From positions 13,793 through 67,929 of the forward strand of contig JAVRCJ020000036.1 of assembly GCA_034530875.2 (NCBI GenBank): DNA of 54,137 nt. Reading direction: 5' to 3'. This DNA is from Nostoc sp. DedSLP01 (GTDB lineage: Bacteria > Cyanobacteriota > Cyanobacteriia > Cyanobacteriales > Nostocaceae). The notes beneath the pieces are model-generated. The model was given only the letters and a program-made list of their open reading frames with translations. It had not been told where the DNA came from and searched no databases. Position 1 is the stretch's first letter, and each line of letters begins with the position of its first letter. This document shows positions 4,166-28,677 of this stretch, one piece after another. The translations under genes and the position numbers were made by a program.

Positions 4166-4198
4166 AGGAATATTTTCAATTAATTCTACATAAAAAAA

Positions 4199-5392: not shown

Positions 5393-5438
5393 CTAATTGC
5401 TCAACTATCGCAAAGTTCCTAATAAGAACAGCCATTAT

Positions 5439-9842: not shown

Positions 9843-10128
9843 GGTGTAGTTAACTCCTATTTGCATTAGAACTAGTGCAAAACTCTAAACGAATACTTAA
9901 TCAACATAAGAAATATTTTATAAATATTAGCAACCTAGCGATTTCAGCTATTACAGTTTGAATTTGAATATTTGACAATAACAAAATAGCGAGAGTTTAA
10001 AGGTGTGGCCAAAGATAAAAATTCTGCAACCATTTCAAGATATTTACTTGGTTACATATACACTAACTAACATAAATAATATTTCTTTTCAAAAAGAATA
10101 ATAAATTAGTTAATTTTAACTGATTTAT

Positions 10129-10260
10129 TAAGTAGATAGGCACGATAAAACTAGACTACATCAATAAATATAAAGTAGGCTCAAACCTTGTTTGCACTTA
10201 CTTTTCGCTTATTGCCACTTCTTTTATTTTAAGTACAAATTTTAGCGCCAACCTACTTAA
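10129..10260. repeat. MITE-like element with TAAGTAG...CTACTTA ends
   Basis: Ends taagtagataggc / gccaacctacttaa; related ends at ~10484, ~16165, 18271-18395, 35503-35632 and 37417-37507. Confidence 0.55.
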
Positions 10261-10280
10261 AGTCCTTAAACATTTTGACC

Positions 10281-10330
10281 AAAAGTAAGAAAAGTATGGA
10301 AAGTAAGAAAAGTAATAAAAGTAGAAAAAT
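10281..10330 (+). repeat. 9-bp tandem repeat (AAAAGTAAG)x~5 in the divergent intergenic region
   Basis: aaaagtaag aaaagtatg gaaagtaag aaaagtaat aaaagtaga. Confidence 0.75.
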
Positions 10331-10694
10331 GAGATTATTAAAATTAGGATATTTAATATTACGTAGCTTGGCATGATACAATCAAACTATCTCAAGCTCA
10401 ATTAGGCTAAAACCCTGTTCTATCTTGCTTTTCGGTCTTGCGAGTTTGTTTATTTGAACTAGAAATTTTGACATCAGCCTACTTATATCTTCTTGAAAAA
10501 CTCCAGTTTTCAAGATGCACGAGGTTTAATATATTTCTCAAGATGGATAAGGTTTAGTATATTTTTATAATAGAAATATGATATGGTTTTTATGTTGATA
10601 TAATTTAAGCTATAGATATTTTGTGTTCTCTGTTATGTAAATAATTGCTGATAGAGAAAAATACTTTGTATATCACTAAAGAGTTAAACCTATC

Positions 10695-11090
10695 GTGGCT
10701 TCTACACCAATATCATCTAGTTCTAAGACCAACTCGAGTCGAACAATCAACACTTCTACCCAAGGTTCGACTTTGGCGGATATTCTGGAACGAATTTTAG
10801 ATAAGGGAATTGTAATTGCAGGTGATATTTCTGTTTCTATCGCCTCTACCGAACTTTTACATATCCGAATTCGGTTATTGATTTCTTCTGTAGATAAAGC
10901 ACGAGAAATGGGAATAAATTGGTGGGAAGGCGATCCTTACCTGAGTAGTAAAGCCCAGACTTTAATTGAGGAAAATCGACAACTCCAGGATAGACTACAA
11001 AGTATAGAAGCAGAAATGCGATCGCTTAAAGCTTTAGCTACTAGTCAAGTGGATTTTGGGATAAGGGAAGGGGAAGGGGAAGGTTTTTAA
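10695..11090 (+). CDS. gvpJ: Gas vesicle protein GvpJ (GvpA/J/M family)
   Basis: STLADILERILDKGIVIAGDISVSIASTELLHIRIRLLISSVDKAREMGINWWEGDPYLSS. Confidence 0.9.
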   Translation: MASTPISSSSKTNSSRTINTSTQGSTLADILERILDKGIVIAGDISVSIASTELLHIRIRLLISSVDKAREMGINWWEGDPYLSSKAQTLIEENRQLQDRLQSIEAEMRSLKALATSQVDFGIREGEGEGF

Positions 11091-11185
11091 ATAAGATTTT
11101 TGTACTTTGATTTTAGGAAAATTAGTTAAATATTTTGAGAAAAGGCTACAAGCGTTTTTAATTTAGAAATAAAATCAGTAAAATT

Positions 11186-11659
11186 ATGACGTTAGTTGGT
11201 AAGTCTTCAGAAAGTTCGGCTGAAAAAATTCTTAATGTTCAGAAACTGAACAGTAAAGCAGGTTTAGCTTCTTTATTGTTAACAGTGTTGGAAGTTATTC
11301 GCCAGTTAATGGAAGCACAAGTTATTCGTCGTATGGATGAACAACTCCTCAGCGATTCGCAGCTAGACGAAGCAGCAGAAAGTTTGCAAAAACTAGAAGA
11401 ACAAGTATTGCACTTGTGCCAAATTTTTGAAATAAAACCAGAAGATTTAAATATAGATTTGGGAGAACTTGGTACTCTTTTACCTGCACCCGGAACCTAC
11501 TATCCAGGGGAACCTAGTCAAAATCCTTCTATCTTGGAACTGCTAGACAGGCTTTTAAATATTGGCATAGTGTTACATGGTGATATTGATTTAGGTTTGG
11601 GTAATTTAAATTTAATTCACGCCAAGCTACGCTTAGTTCTGACATCAAAACTAATTTAG
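11186..11659 (+). CDS. gvpK: Gas vesicle protein GvpK
   Basis: GLASLLLTVLEVIRQLMEAQVIRRM...LNIDLGELGTLLP...ELLDRLLNIGIV. Confidence 0.92.
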   Translation: MTLVGKSSESSAEKILNVQKLNSKAGLASLLLTVLEVIRQLMEAQVIRRMDEQLLSDSQLDEAAESLQKLEEQVLHLCQIFEIKPEDLNIDLGELGTLLPAPGTYYPGEPSQNPSILELLDRLLNIGIVLHGDIDLGLGNLNLIHAKLRLVLTSKLI

Positions 11660-11697
11660 TTTTTTGTAAAACTTTAGAAAAAAGTTAGTAAATATTT

Positions 11698-12432
11698 ATG
11701 AGTTTAGGCATTTACCTATACGGAATTTTTCCCGAAGCTGTTTCTGAAAATGTTATATTAGAAGGATTAGATAAACAACGAGTTAAAAACTATTCTCTTG
11801 ATGGCTTTAACTTTTTGTATTCAGAAGCTAAACAACAAAAATATCTTGCTTCTAGACGTAATTTATTGTGTCATGAAAAAGTTTTAGAAGAAGCAATGAG
11901 TCAAGGGTTTTGTACCCATTTACCTCTACGTTTTGGCTTAGTTGTGAAAAGCTGGGACACAGTTAGCGAACAATTGCTTGTTCCATATAAAGAACAATTA
12001 GAAGCATTATTTCAAAAACTGGATGGACGCCGGGAAGTTAGCGTCAAAGTGCTATGGAATAGTCAGGAAGAAATCCAAGCATTGCTAGAGACAAATCCAG
12101 AATTGCGAGAAAAGCGCGATGCAATGGAAGGTAAAAATTTAAAAATGGAAGAAGTCATAGATATTGGTCAAATGATTGAAAAGGGTTTGCAAGTTCGTAA
12201 GAAAGCTATTATCCAAACTTTTCAAGATGAATTAAACGGTTTGGCAGAAGAAGTATTAGAAAATGTTCCGATGACAGAAGAGATGATTTATAATACAGCT
12301 TATTTAATTCCTTGGGATAGTGAATCTCTCTTTAGTGAAAAAGTAGAATCTATCGATCAAAAATTTAGCGCTCGCCTGCGAATTCGCTATAACAATTTTA
12401 CTGCTCCTTACACATTTGCCCAGCTTTATTAA
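11698..12432 (+). CDS. gvpF: Gas vesicle protein GvpF (GvpL/F family)
   Basis: GIYLYGIFP, YLASRRNLLCHEKVLEE, LPLRFG, IRYNNFTAPYTF. Confidence 0.92.
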   Translation: MSLGIYLYGIFPEAVSENVILEGLDKQRVKNYSLDGFNFLYSEAKQQKYLASRRNLLCHEKVLEEAMSQGFCTHLPLRFGLVVKSWDTVSEQLLVPYKEQLEALFQKLDGRREVSVKVLWNSQEEIQALLETNPELREKRDAMEGKNLKMEEVIDIGQMIEKGLQVRKKAIIQTFQDELNGLAEEVLENVPMTEEMIYNTAYLIPWDSESLFSEKVESIDQKFSARLRIRYNNFTAPYTFAQLY

Positions 12433-12446
12433 AGGAAATTAACCTG

Positions 12447-12692
12447 ATGTTGATGAAAATATTATTATTTCCAGTAATTGGCCCACTTGAAGGTATAACC
12501 TGGATAGGTGAACAACTCTTAGAACGTGCTAGTGGTGAGGTAGATGAAAATGAAAATTTGCACAAACGCTTGTTAGCTTTACAACTGGCTTTTGATATTG
12601 GCGAAATATCTGAAGAAGAGTTTGAAATTCAAGAAGAGGAACTTTTACTGCAAATTCAAGCAATGGAAGAAGAAGTAGAAGAAGTTGATTAA
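12447..12692 (+). CDS. gvpG: Gas vesicle protein GvpG
   Basis: LLFPVIGPLEGITWIGEQ...LLALQLAFDIGEISEEEFEIQEEELL. Confidence 0.92.
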   Translation: MLMKILLFPVIGPLEGITWIGEQLLERASGEVDENENLHKRLLALQLAFDIGEISEEEFEIQEEELLLQIQAMEEEVEEVD

Positions 12693-12724
12693 ATTTTCAA
12701 CTTCTTCTACATGATAATTTGTGA

Positions 12725-13081
12725 CTAAATATCTAAGTAAAAAGTCTCAAAATTATTGGAATCGGAAGCCTTGTGAGAACTATGAGAGCGAGTTTCGCTT
12801 GTATTATCGGTTGGAGTAACGCGCATAGTCTGAGTCGGGACGGAAGGTGATTGGCGCAAGTTTTGAATTGATAGTTCAGTTTGTTGTATTTGAGTATCTA
12901 AATCACTGAGATGCTGTTTCAATTGTTCCAAACGCTCAGTCATAAATTTCAGTTCTTGCTGGATACGCTGCCGGTCTGAGACCATCTTGTATAGCTTTAA
13001 TTGCTCAGATGTTTCAGATTTTATACGAGGCATTGTGCTGATTTTAGGTCTCTTGAGTCCCCGATTACCAATGTGCTTCAT
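12725..13081 (-). CDS. gvpV: Gas vesicle protein GvpV
   Basis: RPKISTMPR...QLKLYKMVSDRQRIQQEL; lies antisense between gvpG and gvpW as in Nostocales gvp clusters. Confidence 0.8.
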   Translation of the reverse strand: MKHIGNRGLKRPKISTMPRIKSETSEQLKLYKMVSDRQRIQQELKFMTERLEQLKQHLSDLDTQIQQTELSIQNLRQSPSVPTQTMRVTPTDNTSETRSHSSHKASDSNNFETFYLDI

Positions 13082-13213
13082 TATCTACTTTTAAAGGAAT
13101 TAGTTTTATTGTAAGTTGTCATTCACTCATTATTAATATAGAGAAAAATTTTTATTTATATTAATTTGTAATATAATTTAAACCCTCAAATTATTTAACT
13201 TTAAATATTAAGT

Positions 13214-13894
13214 GTGGAATTATATAATCTTTACGTTTATGCTTTTATAAAAACACCACTTGTTGACCTAAATTTACCTGTAGGCATCAGCAATATTGTA
13301 GTCCTAATTAGCAAATCTGGTGTTTCTGCTCTGGTAGAACCAGCCATTTCCTTAGAATCGTTGCAAAATAACGATGAAAGCTTAATTAACGCAGTTTTGT
13401 CTCACAATCGCATAATTTATGAAATATTTCGCCACACTACAGTTTTACCCTTGCGGTTTGGTACTTCATTTGCTTCACAAGAGAGCTTATTAAATCATTT
13501 AGAAACTCATGCTGAAGAATATCTAGAAAAGTTATGCCAAATCAAGGGTAAAAATCAATATATTTTAAAATTTATTCCTCGTACTTTAGATGAAATTAAT
13601 ACACCAGCAGTATCCGGGGGAAAAGAGTATTTATTAGCCAAAAAGCAACGCTACCAAGCACAGCAAGATTTTTACACTGCTCAAATAACAGAATGGGAAA
13701 ATGTAGCTCAGACAATTACTCAAATCCATGAATCTAAAATTGTTCAGAAAGAAGGTAAAGAAACACGAATTTATCTTTTAGTGAGTAGTCAAAATGAATC
13801 TTTACTAACAGCACAACTTTTGGCTTGGCAAGAAGTCTGTCCTCGTTGGGAGTTACAGTTAGGAGAAGCACTACCTCCTTATGACTTTATTTAA
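13214..13894 (+). CDS. gvpW: Gas vesicle protein GvpW (GvpL/F family)
   Basis: LYVYAF, AVLSHNRII, TVLPLRFGT, GGKEYLLAKKQRY, LGEALPPYDF. Confidence 0.85.
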   Translation: MELYNLYVYAFIKTPLVDLNLPVGISNIVVLISKSGVSALVEPAISLESLQNNDESLINAVLSHNRIIYEIFRHTTVLPLRFGTSFASQESLLNHLETHAEEYLEKLCQIKGKNQYILKFIPRTLDEINTPAVSGGKEYLLAKKQRYQAQQDFYTAQITEWENVAQTITQIHESKIVQKEGKETRIYLLVSSQNESLLTAQLLAWQEVCPRWELQLGEALPPYDFI

Positions 13895-13976
13895 CTATTG
13901 AATATGACCAATAGTGTCTGATATCACTTTTTTGAAATTAGAATTTTGGCTGAGTCTAGAATTGGAAAAATAAATT

Positions 13977-15899
13977 ATGATTCTTGAAAAGACACACATG
14001 AACTCAAATCTCAAAATTATTGATAGTATTCATCAATATGACTCACTGTACTTAACTATGTTTAGTGGTAAAGGTGGAGTCGGAAAAACGACACTTGCCT
14101 GTGCTTTTGCTCGACGTTGGGCTAGATTATTTCCTAATCAAAACATACTTTTAATATCCACAGATCCAGCCCACTCTTTAGGCGATGTGCTGCAAATAGA
14201 AGTAGTAGAACAAGCTTCGCCTTTACCCGATTTACCTAATTTAAGCGTTCAAGCCTTGGATGCTAAACAATTACTATTAGAATTTAAAGCAAAATACGGT
14301 AATTATTTAGAACTGCTAGTTGAACGCGGAAGCTTTGTTGAAGGAGAAGATTTAACGCCTGTTTGGGATTTAGACTGGCCTGGTATAGATGAAGTCATGG
14401 GTTTGCTAGAAATTCAAAGGTTGCTAGCAGAAAAAGCGGTAGATCGCATAGTAGTAGACATGGCTCCTTCTGGGCATACTTTAAATTTGTTAGGTATTAA
14501 AGATTTTTTAGATGTAGTATTAAACTCTTTAGAATTATTTCAAGAAAAACATCGAGCGATCGCAAAAAGTTTTAGCGGACGTTATATACCGGATGAAGTT
14601 GATGACTTCTTGGCTAAATTGAAATCAGAATTAGCAGAAGGCAAACGGTTATTGCAGGATGTGGATTTTACTGCTTGCTTAGTAGTTGCGATCGCAGAAC
14701 CAATGAGCCTGTTAGAAACCAAAAGGTTTTTAGATAATTTGCAGGAGCTAGAAATAACCTGTGGTGGTTTAATAATTAACAAAATATTGACAGGAAAAAA
14801 TCAAGATTTAGACCGTTACAGCGAACAACAAAACTTATTGAATAATTTTCTAGATATTTCAGCAAACCAATCTCTCTTTATCGTACCACAACAGACAACA
14901 GAACCTTTAGGAAGCCTAGCTTTAGATAATTTAATTAGCCAAATTCAAAAAATTGATACCGTCGCCATTGTCCCTTCACCTACTATACAATGGCCTGCTA
15001 AAACATCTCCTAATTTCACCGATTTTATAAACGAAGGCAAACAACTAATTATCATTGGTGGTAAAGGCGGAGTAGGAAAAACTACAGTAGCAGCAGCCAT
15101 AGGATGGTCATTAGCCAGCTATTATCCCGACAAAAATATTCGCTTGATTTCTATCGACCCCGCTCATTCTTTAGGAGATGCTTTTGGTAAGAAATTGGGA
15201 CACGAACCTACTCAATTAACTCCTAATTTAAGCGGTCAAGAAATCGATGCCAAAACCATTTTAGAACAGTTTCGTAAAGATTATCTTTGGGAATTAGCCC
15301 AAATGATGAGTGGTGAGGGAAGCGAACCAGGAGCAATCAAAATTGCTTATACTCCCGAAGCTTGGCGGCAAATTGTAGCTCAAGCTTTACCTGGTATTGA
15401 TGAAATGCTATCTCTGATTACCATCATGGATTTATTAGACAGTAAACAGCAAGATTTAATTATTTTAGATACGGCCCCTACAGGTCATCTTCTCCGATTT
15501 TTAGAAATGCCTTCTGCACTAGCAGAATGGTTAGCATGGATATTTAAATTATGGATGAAATATCAAAGTGTTTTAGGACGTATAGATTTTATGGGAAGGT
15601 TACGAAAATTGCGCCAACAAGTCATGCAAGCCCAGAAAAAATTACAAGACCCAAATCATACAGAATTCATTGGTGTGATTCAAGCAGAAGCAGCAATTCT
15701 GGCCGAACAAATGCGGCTAACTGAATCTTTAGCAAAAATGCACGTTTCTCAGCGTTATATTGTGCATAATCGCTACAGTCAAGAGATAGAACTTGATGAC
15801 AGTCTATTTGTCAATCAAACTATTATTCGCTTACCAATTTTACCCCGTTCCGTAGAATCGCAAGACCGGATTATCGGAGCAGCAAGATTATTATTTTAA
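13977..15899 (+). CDS. ArsA/Get3-family ATPase with two tandem ATPase domains
   Basis: FSGKGGVGKTT and GGKGGVGKTT, STDPAHSL/SIDPAHSL, DMAPSGH/DTAPTGH. Confidence 0.9.
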   Translation: MILEKTHMNSNLKIIDSIHQYDSLYLTMFSGKGGVGKTTLACAFARRWARLFPNQNILLISTDPAHSLGDVLQIEVVEQASPLPDLPNLSVQALDAKQLLLEFKAKYGNYLELLVERGSFVEGEDLTPVWDLDWPGIDEVMGLLEIQRLLAEKAVDRIVVDMAPSGHTLNLLGIKDFLDVVLNSLELFQEKHRAIAKSFSGRYIPDEVDDFLAKLKSELAEGKRLLQDVDFTACLVVAIAEPMSLLETKRFLDNLQELEITCGGLIINKILTGKNQDLDRYSEQQNLLNNFLDISANQSLFIVPQQTTEPLGSLALDNLISQIQKIDTVAIVPSPTIQWPAKTSPNFTDFINEGKQLIIIGGKGGVGKTTVAAAIGWSLASYYPDKNIRLISIDPAHSLGDAFGKKLGHEPTQLTPNLSGQEIDAKTILEQFRKDYLWELAQMMSGEGSEPGAIKIAYTPEAWRQIVAQALPGIDEMLSLITIMDLLDSKQQDLIILDTAPTGHLLRFLEMPSALAEWLAWIFKLWMKYQSVLGRIDFMGRLRKLRQQVMQAQKKLQDPNHTEFIGVIQAEAAILAEQMRLTESLAKMHVSQRYIVHNRYSQEIELDDSLFVNQTIIRLPILPRSVESQDRIIGAARLLF

Positions 15900-16360
15900 T
15901 GTAATCGTCACTCTAATCTAAATCAATGGTTTACAGCACTTTACAACTAAATAGATTTCTTGCAAAAGCCCTTCTTTGCGTTTTCTTCTCTGCCTCTCTG
16001 CGCCTCTGCGTGAGATAAAAAATTATGCAAGAATTCTTTTTTGGCGCGATTTTTCCGGCATCATACCCTTATCTGAGCGCCCATAAAATTCGTTACTTAA
16101 GTTGATGTCTTTTCAGTATTTATTTATCTCTACATAGTTTAGTTTATTCATACCCACCTACTTACATACTTCTGACGTAAGAGTAAGTCAGAGTACGATC
16201 TGGAATAAATCAACTCTGCGGAGGAAGAGATATTGGGGGATAAATCGGTATATTTCAGCAGAACTCCCTCAATAAACCAGAAAACTTCTCAATCCTTTGC
16301 CAGACGATCGCAACGCTTTGGTGAAAAAGAGCATGACTGCCAAAAAAAGGGAGGAATTTA

Positions 16361-18205
16361 ATGAGCGATTTATTCAAAGGTTTTGAGCAGTTACTAGAAC
16401 TAGCAAAAGCCTTGGAAGAAAAAATTGAAACTGGAGAAATCAAGGCAGATATGCAGTTTCGGACTCGTCCTCTTAGCAGTATACCTCGTACAACTGGCGT
16501 AAATCGTCCTGGTTTTGTCAACGTCCACGTCAGCAATACTAACTCTCGGACTCCACAACCGCCCAGCGATACATCTGCCCAAACGAATTACACATCCCCA
16601 AACCCAGTTACACCAGACTCCTCAGCAACCGCCTCCTTACAAGATATCGGTGGACTAAGGGAAGTTCTCAAAGAACTCAGAGAATTGATTGCTATCCCCT
16701 TAAAACGTCCTGACCTACTGGCAAAACTCGGATTAGAACCGACGCGCGGAGTTTTATTAGTAGGGCCTCCCGGAACTGGTAAAACCCTTACAGCTCGCGT
16801 CCTTGCAAAAGAATTGCAAGTTAACTATATTGCCATAGTCGGGCCAGAAGTTATTGGTAAATACTACGGCGAAGCAGAACAAAGACTGCGGGGAATTTTT
16901 GAAAAAGCTGCTAAAAGTGCGCCTTGTATAGTTTTTATCGATGAAATTGATAGCCTCGCCCCAGACCGCAGCAAAGTAGAAGGGGAAGTAGAAAAACGAC
17001 TAGTGGCGCAACTTCTGGGCTTGATGGATGGTTTTTCCCAAACTAAAGGGGTAATTGTCCTGGCTGCTACCAATCGTCCGGAACATCTCGACCCGGCTTT
17101 ACGTCGCCCTGGAAGATTTGACCGAGAAGTGCTGTTTCGCGTCCCAGACCGCCAAGGCCGTTTGGAGATACTAGAAATTCTGACTCGTGCCATGCCGAAA
17201 GAACCGACAGTAAATTTAGCAGAAATTGCTGATTTAGCTGTGGGATTTGTGGGTGCAGACTTGAAAGCTATCTGTCAAAAAGCTGCTTATAGCGCCTTAC
17301 GCCGTCAAGTCCCCTCAATAGAAGGGCCGATTCCCGACCAGATGACAGTGCAACACTCAGATTTTTTGCAGGCATTCAAAGAAATTAAACCTGCTGTATT
17401 ACGTTCGGTAGAAGTGGAATCTCCTAATGTAACTTGGGAAGAAATTGGTGGACTGGAGGAAATTAAACAAACCCTGCGCGAAGCCGTAGAAGGCGCATTA
17501 TTACATCCAGAACTATACCTGAGAACCAAAGCGCGATCGCCAAAAGGAATTTTATTGTGGGGGCCGCCCGGAACTGGCAAAACTATGCTAGCCAAAGCCG
17601 TTGCTTCCCAAGGTAGAGCGAATTTTATCTGTGTCAACGGCCCGGAATTACTCAGTAAGTGGGTGGGTGCTAGCGAACAAGCGGTGCGGGAATTATTTGC
17701 CAAAGCCAGACTTGCATCACCTTGCGTGATATTTCTCGATGAAATAGATACATTAGCACCTGCAAGAGGGCGTTATCATGGCGATTCTGGAGTAAGCGAT
17801 CGCGTTGTCGGACAATTGCTCACAGAATTAGACGGGTTGCCCACAGGTGCTACTATCTTGGTGATTGCCGCTACCAATCGTCCTGATGCCTTAGACCCAG
17901 CTTTATTAAGGGCTGGAAGATTAGATTTACAGATATTAGTAGATTTACCTAATTTAGAAAGCCGGTGGGCAATTTTGCAAGTTTACAATCAAGACCGTCC
18001 CTTAGAAGATGTGAACTTAGCTTACTGGGCAACACTAACCGAGGGTTGGAACGGCGCCGATTTAGCATTGCTTGGCGATCGGGCTGCGGTGGAAGCGATT
18101 CGTCGCTACCATTCCCAAGGAATGACCGATCCAGCGGCAATCAAAATTACAGACGAAGATTTTAACTATGCCCATCAAATTTTAATGCAACAGCGATCGC
18201 TCTAG
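16361..18205 (+). CDS. Cdc48/VCP-like double AAA+ ATPase (copy 1)
   Basis: D1 GPPGTGKT/FIDEID/RRPGRFD; D2 GPPGTGKT/FLDEID/RAGRLD; RBS GGGAGG upstream. Confidence 0.93.
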   Translation: MSDLFKGFEQLLELAKALEEKIETGEIKADMQFRTRPLSSIPRTTGVNRPGFVNVHVSNTNSRTPQPPSDTSAQTNYTSPNPVTPDSSATASLQDIGGLREVLKELRELIAIPLKRPDLLAKLGLEPTRGVLLVGPPGTGKTLTARVLAKELQVNYIAIVGPEVIGKYYGEAEQRLRGIFEKAAKSAPCIVFIDEIDSLAPDRSKVEGEVEKRLVAQLLGLMDGFSQTKGVIVLAATNRPEHLDPALRRPGRFDREVLFRVPDRQGRLEILEILTRAMPKEPTVNLAEIADLAVGFVGADLKAICQKAAYSALRRQVPSIEGPIPDQMTVQHSDFLQAFKEIKPAVLRSVEVESPNVTWEEIGGLEEIKQTLREAVEGALLHPELYLRTKARSPKGILLWGPPGTGKTMLAKAVASQGRANFICVNGPELLSKWVGASEQAVRELFAKARLASPCVIFLDEIDTLAPARGRYHGDSGVSDRVVGQLLTELDGLPTGATILVIAATNRPDALDPALLRAGRLDLQILVDLPNLESRWAILQVYNQDRPLEDVNLAYWATLTEGWNGADLALLGDRAAVEAIRRYHSQGMTDPAAIKITDEDFNYAHQILMQQRSL

Positions 18206-18270
18206 AAGCTTGACTAAATAAGCAAAAACTTCCCTAAACTTAATTCATGTTTCATGACGATCGGTAACTA

Positions 18271-18395
18271 AAATGGCGCAAAAAAACCGAAGTATATAAC
18301 GGAAAGTAAAGTTGCTCAAAAAGCTATTGAATTCTGGCTTATGTCCTCTAAATCCTACTTTTTTATAACGACAATTTTCAGCACTGACCTACTTA
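18271..18395. repeat. Dispersed MITE-like repeat, copy related to 35503-35632
   Basis: Shared AATGGCG.AAAAAA..AAGTAT.TAACG.AAAGTAAAGTTGC.CAAAAAGCT and ATAACGACAATTTTCA...GACCTA.TTA. Confidence 0.75.
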
Positions 18396-18506
18396 AGCTG
18401 TGCCAAACTTGCAAAATCATGGGGTCAAGATAAGTTATTTTTTATCTTGATTAATGCGTGAAGCAAGTATATACTTATTTCAGGGAAAGAGAGCTTGTTT
18501 TTAGTT

Positions 18507-19076
18507 ATGTTTTTCATCAAGAAAGAGCTAAAACTTAATAACAAAGAACGCTCCTTGATGTTCGGCATGGCTGGATTTAAGCGATTCTTTTACAACTATG
18601 GATTGGACTTAATCATAGCAAGTTGGGGTTTCAATCACATCCAAGCTGGAGATGTTAAACGAATAGATGCAATCAAAAAGGTTTATAAGTAAGTGCATTA
18701 TGGAACTAAAGTTGAAATAATTAATAGGTGGTTTCCTTCTTATAAAACCTGTCCAAATGCAGTCGTATTCAAGCGATGAATCTATCAGGTAAAATATTCT
18801 TTTGTCAAAAGTGCGATCGCACTTTTGACTGCGACAAAAATGCTGCAATTAATTTGAAGAATGCACCGTCTAAAGCAGTAAGTCAGGCTCTGGCTTAACT
18901 TAACGCCTGTGGACAAGAAGTAGCCGTCTACCTTGGTCGTTCGGTCTTAGCGTTCCCGTACCCCTGCTCTTAAGCAAGGCTGGGCGTAGCGTCTCCGTCA
19001 GGAGAAGGATAGCAGAAAGAAAACGCTAACTTAATTAAACTAGTTTGGTTAGGTTTAGGTAAGTTTTTTGGAGCAG
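18507..19076 (+). mobile_element. tnpB: Internally deleted TnpB (IS607/IS605-type) element remnant
   Basis: N-term KKELKLNNKERSLM..AGFKRFFYNYGL is joined at ~18690 to C-term HYGTKVEIINRWFPS.KTC...FCQKCDRTFDCDKNAAINL; right end ...GTAAGTTTTTTGGAGCAG. Confidence 0.8.
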
Positions 19077-19181
19077 CAGATGCTGTCACTAGAAAAGCTG
19101 AGAATTGCAGTTGCAGGTGTATCAATCACCTATCCCCTTCAGAGCGTCATCCCTCCTGCTAAAAGAACGACACAGCAGGCA

Positions 19182-21458
19182 ATGCCCTCTCAAGAAACTA
19201 TGCAGCAAATACCTCCGAGTGATTCTTTTCCTAACGCTCCCACATTTGATGGGGTAGATGACAAGTTAGACATGCCTTACACGCCCGAACTCAACCCTGC
19301 CAGTTTTACTGTCGAGATGTGGGTTATGGTTCAGGGTGGTTCCGGCTACCAGTCTATTCTGGCCTCAGTCGGAGGCTCACCGCTAGCAGGACGCAAGGGA
19401 TATCTTTTTTGCATCACACCTGCACGGCAATGGCAATTTTGGTTAGGCAATGGCGAACCAAAAGCATTCTGGCAGGTACTAGGTGGGACACAGGCAAAAA
19501 TAGGTGTTTGGACACATCTGGCAGGAACTTACGATCGCAACTCACAAACGATGGCTTTTTTCATCAACGGAGCAGAAGTGGGGCGAGAAATGGGCGTGCA
19601 ATACCAGCCCAACGATCGCAATCCTACCCGTGTCGGCGCAGGTGCTACAGAACAGTGGGGAGCAAGTCCTTGTTTTTTTCGTGGCAAGATTGCTGAAGTT
19701 CATGTTTGGGATCGAGTCCTAGCTGCTAAAGAGATTCAGGCACTTGCAGCCCAGCAGTCAATAGAAGTTCAAGCAGAACCTATTCAGGAAAACGGGGGGC
19801 AATGGGGGCAAGAGGGACAAAGTGTTGACCAGACTGAACAAACTACAGGTAATTTCTCTGGTCAAAAGGGACAAAACACAAATCCTTCCCCTCCACCACA
19901 ACCAAGTGTTGAAAAACCTTTAACTCAAGCGCCAGTAAAGGAAACACCTCTGATATCCAAGCAACCTGAGACAAACACTGCTGCTATCCCCGACCCCCAA
20001 ACCGTTCTTTGGCAAATTGGATCTCCAGGTCAAGCCGGAACGCCAGCCCCTGTAGGTGGATGGACAATTGAATATAACTACATAGTAGGCACAGATCCCG
20101 ATCCCCTCAATCGTCCTACCATTCCCTCTTGCTTAGTGCCTTATAATGCCAACAAAATTCCTAATTCAACCAGTCAACTAAATATTCACTTTGGTCTCCT
20201 AGAAGATTATACTGATGGACAATTAGTCTTCTCTTACGATCGCTACGGCTCTGGAGAAGACAATATATTTCTAGACGGACAACTCATTGCTAAAACGCCC
20301 GGTGCAGACAAGGGCAAACTTAAGCAGAGTCAAATCCCGTTAGGAAGTATTCGCCAAGGGCCGCATACGATTTCGATCGCAACAGCAAACGGTGCGGATG
20401 CCGCACACCTAATCGATTATCTGCAACTCCAAATCCATAAGCCTATGCTTTCCAACCTCACATCCCAACTTGGGGGACTGACTGGTGCTTCGTCAAAATC
20501 CAAAGGCAACCTATCAAATCCCCAGCAATCATCTGCTCAATCGGCACAAGCCACAGGACTCTTAGGTGGAGTATTAGATCCAGTAACAAGTGTCGCAGGA
20601 GGAGGTAGCAATGAGGGACTAGTTGGACAAGCCACAGGACTCTTAGGCGGAGTAGCTGGTCAACTTCCCGTAGCTGGGGAATTAGTCGGTAGTTTAACTA
20701 ATGAAAATTCAGGAGGCCCAGGAGTGTTAGGAGGATTACTCAATCAAGTCGGCGGATTAGCTGGAGGTCTACCTGTAGCTGGCGGATTAGTCGGTGGTCT
20801 AACCGGTCAAGGTGGTGGTGGCGGTGGATTAGCTGACGGACTAGTAAATCAAGTTGGTGGACTAGCCAGTGGTCTACCTGTAGCTGGTGGACTAGTCGGT
20901 GGTCTAACCGGTCAAGGTGGCGGCGGTGGATTAGCTGACGGACTAGTAAATCAAGTTGGCGGACTAGCTGGAGGTCTACCTGGAGTCGGTGGTTTAACAA
21001 GTCAAGTCGCTGGACTAGCTGGAGGTCTACCTGGAGTCGGTGGAGTAGTTGGTGGTTTAACAGGTCAGGGTGGTGCTGGCCAAGGAGGTCATGCCGGTGC
21101 ATCGGCTGAAGTTGTGGTACAACTAGCTGGATTAGTACAGCAACTTACTGTATTAGTTTCACAGCTAACTCAGCTTATCACTCAACTAGGGATAGCCAAT
21201 CAAGCTCATGGCGGAGTAGGGGGCGCAGCACAAACGCCAGGAGCAGGGCAACTCCCCGGAGGGAGTGTATCTTTACCCGGACTTACAGCAGCTCAAGTAA
21301 CCCAACTATCTACAATGACTGGCCTCTCAGCACCCCAACTAGCTCAACTTTCAGCGTTAACAAATCTCCCACCAGCACAACTATTACAACTACCAGCAAT
21401 GACAGGTCTCTCACCAGCTCAGGTGTTAGCACAACTACAAGCCCAACAACGTCGGTAG
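19182..21458 (+). CDS. LamG-domain protein with Q/P linker, beta-sandwich domain and long Gly/Leu-rich amphipathic repeat tail
   Basis: FDGVDD...FTVEMWV...WTHLAGTYD...GKIAEVHVWDRVL; TVLWQIGSPG...YIVG (resembles CBM-like lyase domain III); GGLAGGLPVAGGLVGGLTGQ repeats. ATG 19182 chosen because TTG 19068 lies in the TnpB element end. Confidence 0.8.
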   Translation: MPSQETMQQIPPSDSFPNAPTFDGVDDKLDMPYTPELNPASFTVEMWVMVQGGSGYQSILASVGGSPLAGRKGYLFCITPARQWQFWLGNGEPKAFWQVLGGTQAKIGVWTHLAGTYDRNSQTMAFFINGAEVGREMGVQYQPNDRNPTRVGAGATEQWGASPCFFRGKIAEVHVWDRVLAAKEIQALAAQQSIEVQAEPIQENGGQWGQEGQSVDQTEQTTGNFSGQKGQNTNPSPPPQPSVEKPLTQAPVKETPLISKQPETNTAAIPDPQTVLWQIGSPGQAGTPAPVGGWTIEYNYIVGTDPDPLNRPTIPSCLVPYNANKIPNSTSQLNIHFGLLEDYTDGQLVFSYDRYGSGEDNIFLDGQLIAKTPGADKGKLKQSQIPLGSIRQGPHTISIATANGADAAHLIDYLQLQIHKPMLSNLTSQLGGLTGASSKSKGNLSNPQQSSAQSAQATGLLGGVLDPVTSVAGGGSNEGLVGQATGLLGGVAGQLPVAGELVGSLTNENSGGPGVLGGLLNQVGGLAGGLPVAGGLVGGLTGQGGGGGGLADGLVNQVGGLASGLPVAGGLVGGLTGQGGGGGLADGLVNQVGGLAGGLPGVGGLTSQVAGLAGGLPGVGGVVGGLTGQGGAGQGGHAGASAEVVVQLAGLVQQLTVLVSQLTQLITQLGIANQAHGGVGGAAQTPGAGQLPGGSVSLPGLTAAQVTQLSTMTGLSAPQLAQLSALTNLPPAQLLQLPAMTGLSPAQVLAQLQAQQRR
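20540..21080 (+). repeat. Coding Gly/Leu-rich repeats (~34-35-aa units and shorter)
   Basis: GGLVGGLTGQGGGGG(G)LADGLVNQVGGLA occurs twice nearly identically; GLAGGLPGVGG twice; QATGLLGGV twice. Confidence 0.85.
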
Positions 21459-21728
21459 GTGATATTGGGTGAATGGCACGCTTGTTATCGGCAAATCCAA
21501 TATTCATAAGGATGAGTGGGTGTGGGGTGTAGTGGCGTTCTTTGCTACGCAACGAGTAGCAAAGAAGTTTATTAATGTTCGCACTTGTTTTTAATTTTCT
21601 TGATTTTTTCCCTACACCCACAAGAGCCACCCCCAACAAATAGCCCTGACGCTTGTTTCACGTTTACAAGCGTGACATTCGTCTCCCAGCACAGTAACTT
21701 TTCTCAATCCGAATCGACAGTCAAAACT

Positions 21729-23393
21729 ATGCGGACTCCTAGAACATCTGGGTATAAGCCTCTGTCACCAGTCCCCCATCCTGCTCCTTCCACAGAACCT
21801 GCTGTTAAGCCGTCATTACAAGCCGTGGGTGGCTTAAGGGAAGTGCTGGCACAACTGCACGATTTGGTGGCTTTACCACTAAAGCGTCCAGACTTGTTAG
21901 CCAAATTAGGATTAGAACCAACACGGGGAGTGTTGTTAATCGGGCCGCCAGGAACAGGGAAAACTTTGACTGTGCGTGCCATAGCCGAAGAACTCGGTGT
22001 CAACTACATAGCTATTGCTGGCCCGGAGATTATTGGTAAATATTACGGTGAGGCAGAGTTACGACTACGGCAGATTTTCCAAAAAGCTACCCTGTCAGCT
22101 CCTTGCTTAATTTTTATTGATGAAATCGACAGCCTCGCACCAGAACGGAGTAAAGTCGAAGGGGAAGTAGAAAAGCGCGTTGTTGCCCAACTTCTCAGCC
22201 TGATGGATGGCTTTGCTCAACTAAATGGAGTAATAATTTTGGGAGCAACCAACTGTCCGGATCGCATCGATCCGGCGCTGCGTCGTCCTGGTCGATTCGA
22301 TCGCGAAGTGTATTTCCGCCCTCCCGATCGCCTCGGTCGCCTAGAAATTCTCAAGATTCATACTAGTACAATGCCCCTAGATGGGTCTGTAGATTTAGCA
22401 GCAGTTGCCGATTTAGCAATTGGATTTGTCGGTGCAGACTTGCGATCGCTCTGTCAAAAAGCAGCCTACAACGCCCTGCACCGCTTCAATCCCCCTCTAG
22501 ATTCGCCCATACCAGAAGGACTTAGTATCAATCAGCAAGATTTTCTCCAAGCTTTAAAAGAAGTTAAACCCTCTATTCTCCGTCCAGTCACAATTGAAAC
22601 CCCCAACATCACTTGGGAGGAGATTGGAGGCTTAGAGAGCGTCAAAACCATTTTGCAAGAAACTGTTGAAGGTGCGTTGCTGTATCCCGAACTGTACCGC
22701 CAGTTAAAAGCAATATCTCCCCGTGGGATTTTACTTTGGGGCCCGCCCGGAACCGGCAAAACCCTGTTGGCCAAAGCTGTTGCATCCCAAGCGAGAGCGA
22801 ACTTTATCGCCATTAATGGCCCAGAATTACATAGCAAATGGGTAGGGGCATCAGAACAAGCAGTCAGAGAATTATTCACCAGAGCAAGACAAGTATCACC
22901 ATGTATAATTTTTATTGATGAAATCGATGCCCTTGCCCCCATTAGAGGCAGTCACGAAGGAGACTTTGGAGTAAGCGATCGCTTAGTAGGTCAACTCCTC
23001 ACCGAAATTGATGGCATCCAAGCTTGTACTAACATATTAATCATCGCCGCCACAAACCGACCCAACATCATCGACCCAGCCTTATTAAGAGCAGGTCGCC
23101 TAGACTTGCAACTGAAAGTAGACTTACCCGATGTCACCAGCCGATTTGAAATCTTGCGCGTTCATAACTGCGATCGCCCTCTAGCCGCAGACATCAACCT
23201 AGCAGCCTGGGCCGTCCGTACAGAAGGCTGGAACGGCGCAGAACTAGCCCTCCTCAGTAATCAAGCCACCATGCAAGCCATCCGACGCTATCGCCTCCAA
23301 GGATTTACCCAGACCACTGACCTTTGTATATTTGCTATTGATTATGAAATTGCTTATCAATTTTTACTAACGGGAGGGGGAAGGGGAAAGTAA
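21729..23393 (+). CDS. Cdc48/VCP-like double AAA+ ATPase (copy 2)
   Basis: Colinear with copy 1 (LKRPDLLAKLGLEPTRGVLL, GPPGTGKT x2, RSKVEGEVEKR, GVSDR); ATG 21729 preferred. Confidence 0.9.
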   Translation: MRTPRTSGYKPLSPVPHPAPSTEPAVKPSLQAVGGLREVLAQLHDLVALPLKRPDLLAKLGLEPTRGVLLIGPPGTGKTLTVRAIAEELGVNYIAIAGPEIIGKYYGEAELRLRQIFQKATLSAPCLIFIDEIDSLAPERSKVEGEVEKRVVAQLLSLMDGFAQLNGVIILGATNCPDRIDPALRRPGRFDREVYFRPPDRLGRLEILKIHTSTMPLDGSVDLAAVADLAIGFVGADLRSLCQKAAYNALHRFNPPLDSPIPEGLSINQQDFLQALKEVKPSILRPVTIETPNITWEEIGGLESVKTILQETVEGALLYPELYRQLKAISPRGILLWGPPGTGKTLLAKAVASQARANFIAINGPELHSKWVGASEQAVRELFTRARQVSPCIIFIDEIDALAPIRGSHEGDFGVSDRLVGQLLTEIDGIQACTNILIIAATNRPNIIDPALLRAGRLDLQLKVDLPDVTSRFEILRVHNCDRPLAADINLAAWAVRTEGWNGAELALLSNQATMQAIRRYRLQGFTQTTDLCIFAIDYEIAYQFLLTGGGRGK

Positions 23394-23481
23394 TACCAAT
23401 TCAAAATTCAAAATGAATAAAGCTTTACACAACAAGGGTTTGGGAGCGTGTATTTAGAACATTCTTTTTGGAAATTCGTAT
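23391..23481. repeat. Short MITE-like insertion with TACCAATT...AATTCGTA ends
   Basis: taataccaattcaaaattcaaaat ... ggaaattcgtataa, imperfect inverted ends with CAAAATT heptamers inside. Confidence 0.45.
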
Positions 23482-23539
23482 AATTTTCTCTTCCTTTGCA
23501 CTTGTGCGTGAAATAAATATTTGTATAAAAATAGACTTC

Positions 23540-24178
23540 ATGTATGAATTTTTACAAATTTTCCGCTATCAATCACCTGTAACAGTCCTCGGTCCCTACA
23601 AACGAGCCGCTATCTGGGTACAAGGCTGCGACTTTGCCTGTCCAGGTTGTATAGTCCCCGAATCTTGGGACAAAGCAGGCAAACAAACAATTTCCCAAAC
23701 CGAACTAGCAGACTGGATTTTGTCACAACCAGATATTGAAGGAATCACCCTCTCCGGTGGAGAACCAATGCTGCAAGCACCTGCCCTAGTAAACTTAATT
23801 GATAGAGTACATCAATTCAAAAACTTAGGTGTAATGTGCTATACAGGCTACCGCTTAGAACATCTGCAACAACACGGAACAGATGCTCAAAAATCATTAC
23901 TCAATCGCATTGATTTACTAGTCGATGGAACTTATATAGAGTCTTTACATGGGGACTTACTCTGGCGGGGGTCTAGCAACCAAAGATTATTGATGTTAAC
24001 ACAACGATATCGACAGATTTTAATCCAAGAATTAGCACAAGGCGATCGCTCAACCGGAATAGAATTTGGTATAGATGTCACTGGTGCATTTTACTTTACA
24101 GGTATTCCCGCCCGCAAAGGCTTCCGAGATGAGTTTGCAGCCAAAATGCAAAGCCGAGGAATTATATTCTCTAACTAA
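23540..24178 (+). CDS. NrdG-like radical SAM (4Fe-4S single-cluster) protein
   Basis: LGPYKRAAIWVQGCDFACPGC (CxxxCxxC), GITLSGGEPMLQ, YTGY, DLLVDGTY, WRGSSNQR; ATG 23540. Confidence 0.9.
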   Translation: MYEFLQIFRYQSPVTVLGPYKRAAIWVQGCDFACPGCIVPESWDKAGKQTISQTELADWILSQPDIEGITLSGGEPMLQAPALVNLIDRVHQFKNLGVMCYTGYRLEHLQQHGTDAQKSLLNRIDLLVDGTYIESLHGDLLWRGSSNQRLLMLTQRYRQILIQELAQGDRSTGIEFGIDVTGAFYFTGIPARKGFRDEFAAKMQSRGIIFSN

Positions 24179-24193
24179 AAATTACGAATTATT

Positions 24194-25477
24194 ATGAGTG
24201 GCAGTCCTAAGTTTTCAGAAGCAGAAATTGCCGAGTGGAAGCAAAAAATTTTAGAAGCTGAACGTCACCGTCGCGCAGAAATAGAAGCACAAAGACGTAA
24301 GGAAGCCGAAGAACAGGAACGACAACGACAACTAGAAGAATCCCGTTACCAAACTCAAATTCGCGTACAAAGATTGCTGTCAGATCTAAATTGGCAGTGG
24401 GAAAATTTTTATGTTCAAGAAGCAGTAGCATTACAATCTCGCTATCAAAATCAGCTTGAAGCGATCGCTCAAGCAAATTCAGAAAGCAAACTACTAGTAA
24501 TTTCCGAAGAACTAATTAAAATTGAACAGGCAATGCAAGCCGCATTGCAGCGCAAACGCCGCGACGAAGCAGAAAAACAAAGACGAAAAGACATTGAGCA
24601 ACAACAGTTTGAACTCCAAGAACTAGAACGGCGAGTAGCTCAAATTCCCGAAACAGAATCTCTAAAATTTGATGCCGCAGGTCGGCAACAATTACAGCGC
24701 ATCTTACAAACTTTACGACAAACTATTTCTTCTGGAAACCCGATAGCAGTACGCCGACCTCTAATAGAAGCAACAGCTTTAGTTCAAAAACACTTACGCC
24801 AAATTGTCCAGGGTCAGTCAAACTCACGCCATTCAGAAGCACAAGCAAATCGACAACTCACAGAGATCAAAATTATTTTGACAGGTTTGAAAGCCGATCC
24901 AGTAGTTATGCAATGGCAAGCAGCAGCAGTAACAGAAATAGAAACTCAAATCAATACGGTGCAACAAGCTATTACTAACGGTCAAAGCCAACAAGTAATT
25001 TCCCAGTTAACAGAAATTAGGCAGCGGTCGCAAACAATTGTCGAAACCGCCAATGCAGCCCAACTCCAAGCAGACAAGCGAGATTATATTGCTGATAGTA
25101 TTTCTCAAACTTTACAAGAAATGGGTTTCAGCATCACCTTTCATCAACCAGAGCATCCAGAACATCCCGCTACATCTATTATTTTAGGAGCCACGACTAA
25201 CACAGGTAAAGGAGTTAGCGTTAGTATTCCGATCGCCGGACAAGTGTTTTATGACGTAGATGGCTATGTCAAACACAGCATTACTACTGTAGATGGAAAT
25301 ACCTCCGCAGTCTGCGATGAAGCAGAACAAATGCTAACTGAGATGCACGATGTTTTAGAAGATAAATTTGGTGTCAAGATGGGTGAAGTATTATGGCAAG
25401 GTAAAGACCCCAAGCGCGTCCTTCGCAAAGCCGAGAATTTGCCAACTCAGAAGCGATCGCGTAGTCGTAGTATTTAG
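24194..25477 (+). CDS. Coiled-coil protein with a small alpha/beta C-terminal domain (DUF1257/DUF2997-like by eye)
   Basis: E/Q/R-rich helices; C-term ISQTLQEMGFSI...VSVSIPIAGQVFYDVDG...CDEAEQML; starts 15 bp after the rSAM gene. Confidence 0.75.
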   Translation: MSGSPKFSEAEIAEWKQKILEAERHRRAEIEAQRRKEAEEQERQRQLEESRYQTQIRVQRLLSDLNWQWENFYVQEAVALQSRYQNQLEAIAQANSESKLLVISEELIKIEQAMQAALQRKRRDEAEKQRRKDIEQQQFELQELERRVAQIPETESLKFDAAGRQQLQRILQTLRQTISSGNPIAVRRPLIEATALVQKHLRQIVQGQSNSRHSEAQANRQLTEIKIILTGLKADPVVMQWQAAAVTEIETQINTVQQAITNGQSQQVISQLTEIRQRSQTIVETANAAQLQADKRDYIADSISQTLQEMGFSITFHQPEHPEHPATSIILGATTNTGKGVSVSIPIAGQVFYDVDGYVKHSITTVDGNTSAVCDEAEQMLTEMHDVLEDKFGVKMGEVLWQGKDPKRVLRKAENLPTQKRSRSRSI

Positions 25478-25756: not shown

Positions 25757-26358
25757 TTATTCCTGCATCGGATACCGCCGCATCATTTCCTGCAACCCTA
25801 CTGGTTCGCCATCCGAGGTATACACAGTTTCCCCCAACATCGCAATCACAATCCACTGCTTCCTCGCCCACTCAAACCAAGCAATCGTACTCCTATTAGC
25901 CTGCTGTAACTCCGGCTTCCTCCCCTCCTTACAAGCCGCAACAAACACAGCCTCCGGTGACTTGATTCCTTTCCAAGTCCGTATCGCCTCCTTCAAGTAA
26001 GCGATCGCCCCGGCACATTCTCCCAGTACCGCCGAACTGTACGTTGAATCTCTGCATTGAGCCGAAACTGTGGAGTACAGGGTATTTCTCGTAACTTTTG
26101 CAACACCTCCTGAACCTCTTGGTTACTGGGCTTTATTGATTTTTCTTGTCGCTCAAAAGCGCAATCATCATCACCAAAGTCTTCGTCACAAAAATTTGAC
26201 GCGGCAGGCGCGGCCCAAGAACGATCCTCATGAGTATTTGTCTCGGTAGTCGAATCAAGGGGTTCTATTCTTTCAACGAAGTGAGTATTTTCGGGTAACT
26301 CTGGTTCTGCGGTTTGACAAACCCCTTCCTGGTTGCAGTCCAAAATTTCGGTTTCCAC
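25757..26358 (-). pseudogene. Frameshifted C-terminal part of a plasmid/phage-type hypothetical protein
   Basis: The two ORFs join as YWENVPG-AIAYLKEAIRTW if one G is restored in GGGG next to the HIP1 site at ~26000-26012. Confidence 0.7.
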
Positions 26359-26762
26359 TGTAGTTCCTGAATTTGTTGTTGTAGCTGAGGGATTAGCTTG
26401 ACAGATTCTTTAGCAATGGTTTCGCATTGCAGAAAATATTTGCGGATCAGTCTACCTTGTTCGCTCTTTGAGAGCATTCCCATTTCTTTGAAGCATTCGG
26501 TTGTCAAATAAATTTTTTCGACTGGTCTACCCACTTTTGAATTTTCCTCACAAGTGATGAAAACTTGGTATGGTAAAGCTTCTAGCGATTCATCTTGGAG
26601 TTGTAGGAAATAATCGAAGTTTCGTTCAAAGTATGCACTCAACATCCTCTTAGCATTACTCTTGGTGCTATATCCCAACACTGACCAAGCTCAATCAAAA
26701 TCTATAATCTGGTTACTGTTATGCAACTGTTGAGCGATTTCGAGCGTAAATTCTGATGCCAT
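26265..26762 (-). pseudogene. AntA/antirepressor-like DNA-binding protein with premature stop
   Basis: ATG 26762 gives MASEFTLEIAQQL..IDFD*AWSVLGYSTKSNAKRML...GRPVEKIYLTTECFK..G...RKYF..CE; in-frame TGA at 26691-26693. Confidence 0.7.
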
Positions 26763-26865
26763 AAAATTATTCGTGGTAAAGGTTAATATTTGGCGCATGA
26801 AAATATCGGCAGCAGTTGAGCTATGCTGCATTCAGTTCTTTTAAAGATGTGAGTGCGAGTTCTAT

Positions 26866-28550: not shown

Positions 28551-28677
28551 CCAAAGTGAACATTCATGCTGGAGTTTGGACTATACCAAAAATGTGTCAG
28601 CATATATCTAGCTCACTTTGTTGCCCAACAATCTGAGTCGGCGATCGCATTGCTTGGTCGGCGGGCGATCGCTCTTA

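Follow-up and report, generated by a model that had tools for sequence, protein, structure and literature searches.

An apparently undescribed lineage of gas-vesicle gene clusters merged with an ATPase and kinase cassette in Nostoc sp. DedSLP01

Why would genes for gas-vesicle assembly stand beside two Cdc48-like ATPases, a LamG protein, a radical SAM enzyme and a coiled-coil protein, with no shell gene among them? The question is raised by a 54,137-nucleotide stretch of the genome of Nostoc sp. DedSLP01 (the window; C36:13793-67929 of a genome of 8.57 Mb, 99.8% complete), in which an original prediction, made from the letters alone, saw a gas-vesicle accessory cluster "without gvpA/C/N". The proteins GvpA, N, J, K, F and G make gas vesicles. 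We find that the locus represents a lineage of gas-vesicle clusters that is apparently undescribed and has merged with an ATPase and kinase cassette, itself undescribed. The names Cdc48a, Cdc48b, LamG-GL, CC and mini-gvpC were coined in this analysis; G, C and L numbers denote genomes, contigs and loci, and coordinates without a prefix are window positions.

Profile searches of the genome returned six PF00741 and four GvpF/L matches, which form two gvp sets. The gvpA, gvpC-like and gvpN genes of the first set lie 6.4–8.4 kb before the window start on the - strand of C36, and gvpA is separated from the divergently oriented gvpJ by 17,122 bp. The predicted lack of these three genes is an artefact of the window, because the arm that carries them, 17.1 kb upstream of gvpJ on the same contig, falls just outside it; the suggestion that the shell genes sit elsewhere was borne out by the genome search at a distance of 17 kb. 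The genes of the two arms are the following.

C36:7146-7364, - strand, gvpA (NF006874, 135 bits against a cut-off of 100)
C36:6359-6814, - strand, gvpC-like gene of 151 aa, between gvpA and gvpN
C36:5433-6368, - strand, gvpN, AAA+ ATPase (TIGR02640, 396 bits against a cut-off of 267)
10695..11090, + strand, gvpJ (PF00741, E 2e-16; 69% to the C28 paralogue)
11186..11659, + strand, gvpK (PF05121 and PF00741)
11698..12432, + strand, gvpF (PF06386, E 6e-63)
12447..12692, + strand, gvpG (PF05120, E 3e-22)
12725..13081, - strand, gvpV (52% over 83 aa, E 2e-25, to Nostoc sphaeroides plasmid p4)
13214..13894, + strand, gvpW, GvpF/L family (PF06386, E 3e-30)
13977..15899, + strand, tandem Get3/ArsA-family ATPase (TIGR00345, 345 bits against a cut-off of 135)
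16361..18205, + strand, Cdc48a, tandem-AAA ATPase without the Cdc48 N-domain, a standard companion

The window open reading frames (ORFs) were assigned by Pfam and NCBIfam profile searches. The gvpJ, K, F, G and W, ArsA, Cdc48, LamG/Gly-Leu, second Cdc48, radical SAM and coiled-coil genes are open + strand frames with the domains predicted for them. The gvpV gene is present in the cluster as proposed, but on the - strand; its match on plasmid p4 is an annotated gene in equal position and orientation. The assembly factors GvpJ, K, F, G, V and W are all intact. The ratio of nonsynonymous to synonymous substitution rates (dN/dS) is 0.06–0.28 for gvpJ, K, F and W, and 0.03–0.32 over the full set of 16 genes tested against G041, G042 or G601. 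The Get3/ArsA-like ATPase passes the broader Get3/ArsA subfamily and fails arsenical-pump ArsA (TIGR04291, 200 bits under 650); its gene occupies the same position in non-extended clusters and is a standard companion.

According to the accessible parts of three papers, GvpC attaches to the outer helix of the shell protein GvpA, elongation is driven by GvpN, and GvpF and GvpG are chaperones of GvpA (PMC9994262, PMC10185304, PMC11445434). Against the proposed module that builds a different structure without GvpA, the linked GvpA shares 65 of 71 residues with that of Anabaena flos-aquae (8GBS), retains Glu52/Glu59 and its alternating hydrophobic face, and shows purifying selection (dN/dS 0.03–0.11). 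Position 28 is leucine, valine or isoleucine in 15/15 extended sequences and alanine in 34/34 other aligned rows, both plasmid copies and both PDB chains, a count for which the GvpA of G043 and G046 was not recovered and one further row was unusable. By strand alternation, position 28 would face the gas lumen (accessible part of PMC9994262). The gvpC-like gene aligns to an annotated GvpC at 30% over 116 aa (E 8e-7) and contains one full repeat motif with the L/F/L/R/L/F spacing given in the accessible part of that paper (PMC9994262). PF01304 has no match in the genome, but no control genome matched either. Judged from its genes, the window together with the upstream arm very probably constitutes a complete gas-vesicle gene cluster.

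The second set (C28:39339-52007) comprises A, C-like, N, J, K, F, G, V, W, ArsA and one Cdc48, in agreement with the suggestion that the window set is paralogous. GvpA is 93% identical between the two sets and the remaining proteins 27–73%. The gvpK gene is present in 13 of 24 congeners, one copy each. The window set is likely a later gain beside the genus-typical C28 set, because 11 of these 13 carry the C28-type cluster (79–100% identity), and the other two carry a canonical A-N-J-K-F-G-V-W-ArsA-Cdc48 type that is only 50–75% like the window genes. The C28 cluster adjoins a chemotaxis operon, and its GvpC-like protein (L008:13328-14008) has a weak C-terminal winged-helix match and no canonical repeat motif.

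A 7-N scaffold gap at C36:13786-13792 lies between the gvpA-C-N arm and gvpJ. We rejected the explanation of the split as a one-off rearrangement or scaffold error, since the divergent layout recurs on single contigs in G041, G042 and G601; the examined G041 and G042 loci contain no N. The same arrangement is found in most extended loci, as we call the clusters in which the gvp genes are accompanied by the following genes of this contig.

19068..21458, + strand, LamG-GL (PF13385; likely start ATG 19080)
21585..23393, + strand, Cdc48b, the second Cdc48-like ATPase (likely start ATG 21729 here)
23468..24178, + strand, rSAM, small NrdG-like radical SAM protein (PF13353, E 3e-33; likely start ATG 23540)
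24194..25477, + strand, CC, tandem helical bundles and a C-terminal alpha/beta domain with conserved Cys-Asp
C36:485-2257, + strand, soluble kinase-FGE, left arm, outside the window
C36:2498-4519, + strand, ClpB-D2-like ATPase (matches ClpB/ClpA D2), left arm, outside the window

The LamG-GL query identified eight loci in GTDB genomes (two Nostoc, Scytonema, two Rhizonema, Iningainema, an uncultured bacterium and Cyanobacteria J06592_8), and two more, G145 and G162 of another family, came from a search with CC. When 389 family genomes were searched with the LamG-GL middle domain, 26 matches were returned, among them seven that repeat known loci, three new full-length ones (G315, G391, G601), two remnants, and 13 at 35–51% identity; the three of these 13 examined are unrelated, with no gvp genes nearby. 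Full-length LamG-GL is present in 14 genomes, this one included, and all 14 carry gvp genes: 12 have only the extended set, and this genome (G000) and G041 have two sets. LamG-GL lies within ~40 kb of gvpJ/K on one contig in 11 of the 14; the other three (G043, G045, G046) are drafts with the locus on at least two contigs. Twelve metagenome loci comprise two long true homologues, both with LamG-GL linked to gvp genes, three short ones, and seven weak LamG matches. Homologues from a protein search are named Aerosakkonema, Oscillatoria, Brasilonema, Hassallia and Microcoleus. The LamG domain of LamG-GL was matched at E<=1e-40 in two of 401 phylum genomes, G000 and one other, which makes this type rare, and LamG-GL was not found in the plasmid collection. 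The original prediction had named as evidence against itself a genome with no other gvpJ-W genes and LamG and rSAM genes syntenic with gvp genes nowhere else; it withstands this comparison, because the set is paralogous and LamG, Cdc48b, rSAM and CC are syntenic with gvp genes in other genomes.

The accessory genes are interleaved with gvp genes in all of at least six gene orders (G000/G601, G315, G043/G047, G145/G162, G048, L130). Cdc48b directly follows LamG-GL in 13/13 genomes with continuing DNA and in both long metagenome loci. The rSAM gene follows gvpA-(C)-N in G043–G047, G315, G391 and L128; a LamG paralogue lies between gvpV and gvpW in G043, G045, G046, G047, G315 and L128; and a short gvpC copy, mini-gvpC, is placed between CC and the kinase in G043, G045, G145, G162, G315, G601 and G613. 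In the single case of G391, the LamG paralogue and gvpW share one 801-aa ORF, which may reflect a lost stop codon. G315 is the most compact: one arm reads gvpA-C-N-62aa-90aa-rSAM-LamG-GL-Cdc48b-CC-mini-gvpC-kinase, followed by an inserted gene, ClpB-like, vWA and FHA genes, with gaps of 57 bp, 2 bp, an overlap, and then 79, 80, 17, 43, 112 and 56 bp; the other reads gvpJ-K-F-G-V-LamG paralogue-W-ArsA-Cdc48a. In the genome of DedSLP01, the kinase and ClpB-like genes are 33 kb from rSAM/CC. Judging by its genes, this copy is eroding, because no vWA or FHA orthologue was found in the genome and Cdc48b has lost its N-terminal helix.

LamG-GL is composed of a LamG domain, a CBM-like β-sandwich, a Gly/Leu/Val/Ala-rich region, a conserved amphipathic helix and Gln-rich helical repeats (19 homologues aligned), with no signal or membrane segment by hydropathy. 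In a structure search, its LamG fold matches pentraxin/CBM40; the model of the whole protein is of low confidence (predicted local distance difference test, pLDDT, 41) and serves for the domain layout only. Its dN/dS is 0.17–0.23. We rejected the LamG N-termini as GvpA- or GvpK-like hairpins (hhalign probability 0.43% and 1.7%). A complex prediction of Cdc48b with two LamG-GL parts gave no answer (score 0.00). The LamG-GL middle domain also occurs fused, together with a B-lectin domain, to a type 2A encapsulin (SrpI-like) shell protein in G329 (L119:8896-10803), and, by eye, together with LamG to a lipoxygenase-like region in G583 (L122:2039-4573).

Walker A/B motifs, pore loops and arginine fingers are intact in both rings of Cdc48a and Cdc48b. 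The two proteins score 658 and 646 bits with TIGR01243, under its 802.65, and leave the first 175 profile positions unmatched, so that the N-domain is missing; a short N-terminal helix common to both takes its place. The dN/dS of Cdc48b is 0.08–0.12. The rSAM motifs CxxxCxxC and GGEP are conserved in 26/26 rows, and the protein fails the NrdG equivalog (TIGR02491, 107.7 bits under a cut-off of 126.1). CC is the marker of the rSAM/ClpB-like/kinase cassette. Its predicted model reaches a pLDDT of 91, and no Pfam, NCBIfam or PADLOC family and no clear fold match was found for it; Atlas matches were under 0.9 and unnamed, and VIA matches were generic helical bundles. A resemblance of its C-terminus to DUF2997/DUF1257 gained no support, with no Pfam match and nothing from Foldseek at E<=0.001. 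The accessory-arm proteins are soluble, without membrane segments, and have intact catalytic motifs. In G601, a third gvp-type Cdc48 gene stands between the kinase and ClpB-like genes (L104:8841-10577).

The 11 extended clusters in a GvpF+N+K tree (39 rows, 690 columns, midpoint root; G315, G391 and G601 absent) form one clade, supported at 100/100 and sister to the canonical type. In a quick Cdc48 tree (42 rows, midpoint root), Cdc48b forms a clade of its own (11 rows; Shimodaira–Hasegawa-like approximate likelihood ratio 100), and extended Cdc48a forms another (99). On this sequence evidence Cdc48b is an ancient paralogue derived from the gvp-linked Cdc48 type, because the N-terminal helix is common to both. 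The CC (100) and ClpB-like (99.8) proteins of extended loci are single clades in fast trees, the CC clade including remnants in the gvp-less G169, G218 and G613; extended-locus rSAM divides into two distinct clades (98.1, 97.5), each retained within the locus. We propose that an ancestor duplicated part of a gvp cluster (gvpC, a LamG gene and Cdc48) and captured the cassette, that the extended block would then have moved between filamentous cyanobacteria, and that this Nostoc may have gained it as a second set beside the genus-typical one.

What might the accessory arm do? Our first choice, tentative and held at somewhat below an even chance, is that the locus is a gvp cluster of a distinct lineage with a co-expressed, ATP-driven arm that remodels or clears vesicles. 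The arm is likely co-transcribed with the gvp genes, and we infer that it is physically coupled to the vesicles. We hypothesize that LamG-GL and Cdc48b are a duplicated LamG-Cdc48 unit acting on vesicle proteins, in which LamG-GL would serve as a scaffold or substrate adaptor for the N-domain-less Cdc48b, and Cdc48b would pull Gvp subunits out or remove the short GvpC. The action of Cdc48b could be gated, for example when hormogonia settle, by the kinase, a soluble protein with a lectin tail, together with FHA/vWA proteins. A functional tie to vesicles is rather probable for LamG-GL and Cdc48b, and doubtful, if still plausible, for the rSAM/CC/ClpB-like/kinase part. We speculate further, and regard it as unlikely, that a phosphorylation-gated cassette of two unfoldases and a radical enzyme docks through LamG adaptors and mini-GvpC on a shell with an altered inner face, where it builds or destroys vesicles on signal, possibly for dispersal or against infection in benthic and symbiotic filaments.

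The firmest support for vesicle remodelling is the interleaving, together with the state of LamG-GL outside gvp clusters: the two gvp-less genomes that carry it have only broken forms, a deletion chimera with Cdc48b in G613 and a 144-aa fragment in G347. Several observations weigh against it. The main weakness is that one event lies behind all extended loci, which are thus not independent. The extension was present in none of 16 clusters around gvpK in one survey, and 17 of 20 gvp clusters had no LamG; the exceptions are G145, G162 and a G195 contig that is short. The examined stretches of G048 showed no rSAM, CC, kinase or ClpB-like gene, and the LamG subtype also occurs in the gvp-less G846, in a protein of different build. 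Of the 14 genomes that carry a distant CC, 12 lack gvpK, the other two have it on another contig or 244 kb away, and G613 keeps intact CC and kinase without gvp genes. The kinase switch looks incomplete in extended loci, because the PP2C phosphatase of the cassette, present in three gvp-less loci, was not found in any extended locus examined. Vesicle remodelling does not account for the radical SAM enzyme.

The strongest alternative is a hitch-hiking island, in which an ordinary gvp cluster and an unrelated conflict or signalling cassette were joined once, have since moved and been rearranged as one, and share promoters, not function; we consider it possible, though less probable than not. The cassette is widespread without gvp genes. 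CC occurs in 23 and gvpK in 62 of 251 order genomes, and the CC family comprises 391 clusters at 50% identity (E<=0.001). The 13 loci examined from the 14 distant-CC genomes all have a ClpB-like neighbour and 11 have rSAM in view; no gvp gene was seen in any of the 13. The sequences thus indicate that the cassette (rSAM, CC, ClpB-like, kinase, vWA, FHA) is widespread and older than its merger with gvp genes. The radical SAM and coiled-coil proteins, predicted as gas-vesicle accessories, belong to this cassette, which mostly occurs without gvp genes. The single origin of the extended loci also fits hitch-hiking, as do decayed remnants in G065, G169, G218, G195 and G247, a plasmid-borne gvp cluster of the sister type, and other cargo: toxin-antitoxin-like pairs, a lipoxygenase-like gene and a triad of lipase, peroxidase and catalase-like genes. 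Hitch-hiking does not account for interleaving kept through the different gene orders among proteins merely 50–80% identical, for the gvp-derived duplicates (mini-gvpC, Cdc48b) inside the cassette, or for the breakage of LamG-GL in both gvp-less carriers.

An improbable alternative is defence coupling, in which the cassette senses an invader or stress, its ATPases collapse or build vesicles, or the vesicles scaffold lectin-fold decoys, and filaments or hormogonia float off or sink. The kinase-FGE, vWA, FHA, rSAM and AAA+ types recur in cyanobacterial conflict systems (accessible part of PMC7159879), and the encapsulin fusion in G329 indicates that the LamG-GL middle domain can ride a protein compartment. 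However, the matches from PADLOC 2.0.0 were limited to generic kinase and AAA models and weak rSAM ones; CC, LamG-GL and the 90-aa protein described below had none, and the genes are conserved, not fast-evolving. It is very unlikely that the LamG proteins are cargo of a different, non-gas protein structure built by the Gvp chaperones, as the bulky lineage-specific GvpA residue 28 (15/15), the much shortened GvpC and the two gvp clusters each of G000 and G041 might suggest, since GvpA retains its near-identity to the Anabaena protein, its hydrophobic face and Glu52/Glu59, the extended set is the sole one in 12/14 genomes, and the suspected GvpA-like hairpin in LamG-GL scored only 0.43% probability.

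Other features accompany the cluster.

L007:4841-5113 and ~5250-5436 (C36), conserved ORFs of 90 aa and 62 aa after gvpN (no Pfam family over cut-off)
6228..9866, - strand, LamG x2/coiled-coil repeats/FG-GAP protein (PF13385, PF14312)
9867..10694, AT-rich divergent intergenic region
21471..21681, 211-bp dispersed repeat (91% to a copy on C50)

The 90-aa protein also adjoins gvp genes in canonical clusters of G030, G157 and G174, and may be an unnamed gas-vesicle gene. In G042 and G601, the gene for the vWA protein comes next after gvpN and two small ORFs. Identification of the 90-aa gene as GvpX was dropped, as G157 and G174 have a different J-like gene between gvpJ and gvpK; their 90-aa homologue is located upstream of gvpA. 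The AT-rich non-coding DNA predicted upstream of gvpJ is 828 bp without an ORF >=60 aa (GC 31% over 10001-11000) and 86% identical in L042, and the divergent neighbour is a LamG protein, as had been noted. Its homologues occupy the same place, between the two gvp arms, in G041, G042 and G601; none was seen in other extended loci. The 211-bp repeat replaces intergenic DNA and the first codons of Cdc48b, is absent there in L042/L043, and contains a terminator-like hairpin at 21538-21566, in a scan that was overall no better than shuffles. As a whole this consensus scan was uninformative (promoter-like sites, 44 against 33+-4.7 shuffled; terminator-like, 15 against 15.4).

A tandem Tle1-like lipase, animal-type haem peroxidase and catalase-like gene stand at 1418-5392. 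The triad accompanies the extended gvp locus in G042, G043, G047 and partly G045, and is likely an oxylipin pathway; we take it to resemble cyanobacterial dioxygenase/catalase pairs. A tandem-repeat membrane protein gene (313-1371) spans the 7-N gap just before the window. Divergent from gvpA is a gene for a 1603-aa protein (L007:8338-13149) that is also conserved in G041 and G042; its start looks vWA-like by eye, and no Pfam family matches it convincingly. Directly after CC, - strand unannotated ORFs and a helix-turn-helix gene (25993-29037) look like a mobile element and may mark the island edge. In G065, a decayed second set gvpJ-K-F-W is flanked by ClpB-like and vWA fragments (L088:9393-13111), likely a relic of the extended type. 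The canonical gvp cluster, ArsA and Cdc48 included, is complete on a 36-kb plasmid of N. sphaeroides (L140:2848-13584).

Gas vesicles are not known to have machinery dedicated to their regulated turnover. With its named candidate genes, complete loci and a natural genome that holds two clusters, the lineage makes such turnover open to testing, and it provides a first functional handle on the widespread, undescribed rSAM/ClpB-like/kinase cassette. A natural GvpA variant with minimal GvpC may differ in acoustic or collapse properties. The lineage also allows a test of what makes cyanobacteria of soil, lichens and mats retain gvp genes. In the accessible part of PMC5702739, gvp genes are induced in Nostoc hormogonia, and, from work of others cited there, they rise early in contact with the host and motility requires gvpA. 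In titles and abstract starts, no publication describing this cluster type was found. The library searched held no paper linking gas vesicles with Get3 and ArsA, or with LamG in cyanobacteria, and no printed description of the cassette was found.

How does the locus compare with known systems? Cdc48a and Cdc48b resemble Cdc48/p97/VAT unfoldases in their two AAA rings and intact motifs, with TIGR01243 as the best NCBIfam match; they differ in that this match begins at profile position 176–178 and stays below cut-off, a short helix standing in place of the N-domain. The cassette ATPase is ClpB-D2-like, unlike the MoxR of vWA-MoxR ternary conflict systems; GvpN is presumably MoxR-like. The cassette shares vWA, AAA+, FGE/FGS lectin-fold and FHA components, and the occurrence in filamentous cyanobacteria, with these systems, one FtsH subtype of which has a radical SAM protein (Kaur et al. 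2020, PMC7159879); the accessible text of that paper mentions neither "gas vesicle" nor "CDC48". The gvp-less cassette has orthologous rSAM, CC, ClpB-like and kinase-FGE proteins, with vWA and FHA in relatives, whereas the extended form is merged with gvp genes, adds LamG-GL, Cdc48b and mini-gvpC, and has no PP2C that we could find. The Anabaena PCC 7120 cluster is ordered gvpA(n)-C-N-J-K-F-G-V-W (accessible part of PMC7204071). Our locus shares all core genes and the reversed gvpV with the cyanobacterial cluster, and the Get3/ArsA-like and Cdc48-like ATPases after gvpW with the cluster on plasmid p4. In contrast to the canonical type, most members of the extended lineage have gvpA-C-N divergent from gvpJ; in this lineage a single gvpA, carrying L/V/I28, is usual, and GvpC has 124–168 aa with no more than one full repeat and is joined by a copy of 73–125 aa. 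The lineage also interleaves LamG proteins, a second Cdc48 and the kinase/rSAM/ClpB-like cassette with its gvp genes.

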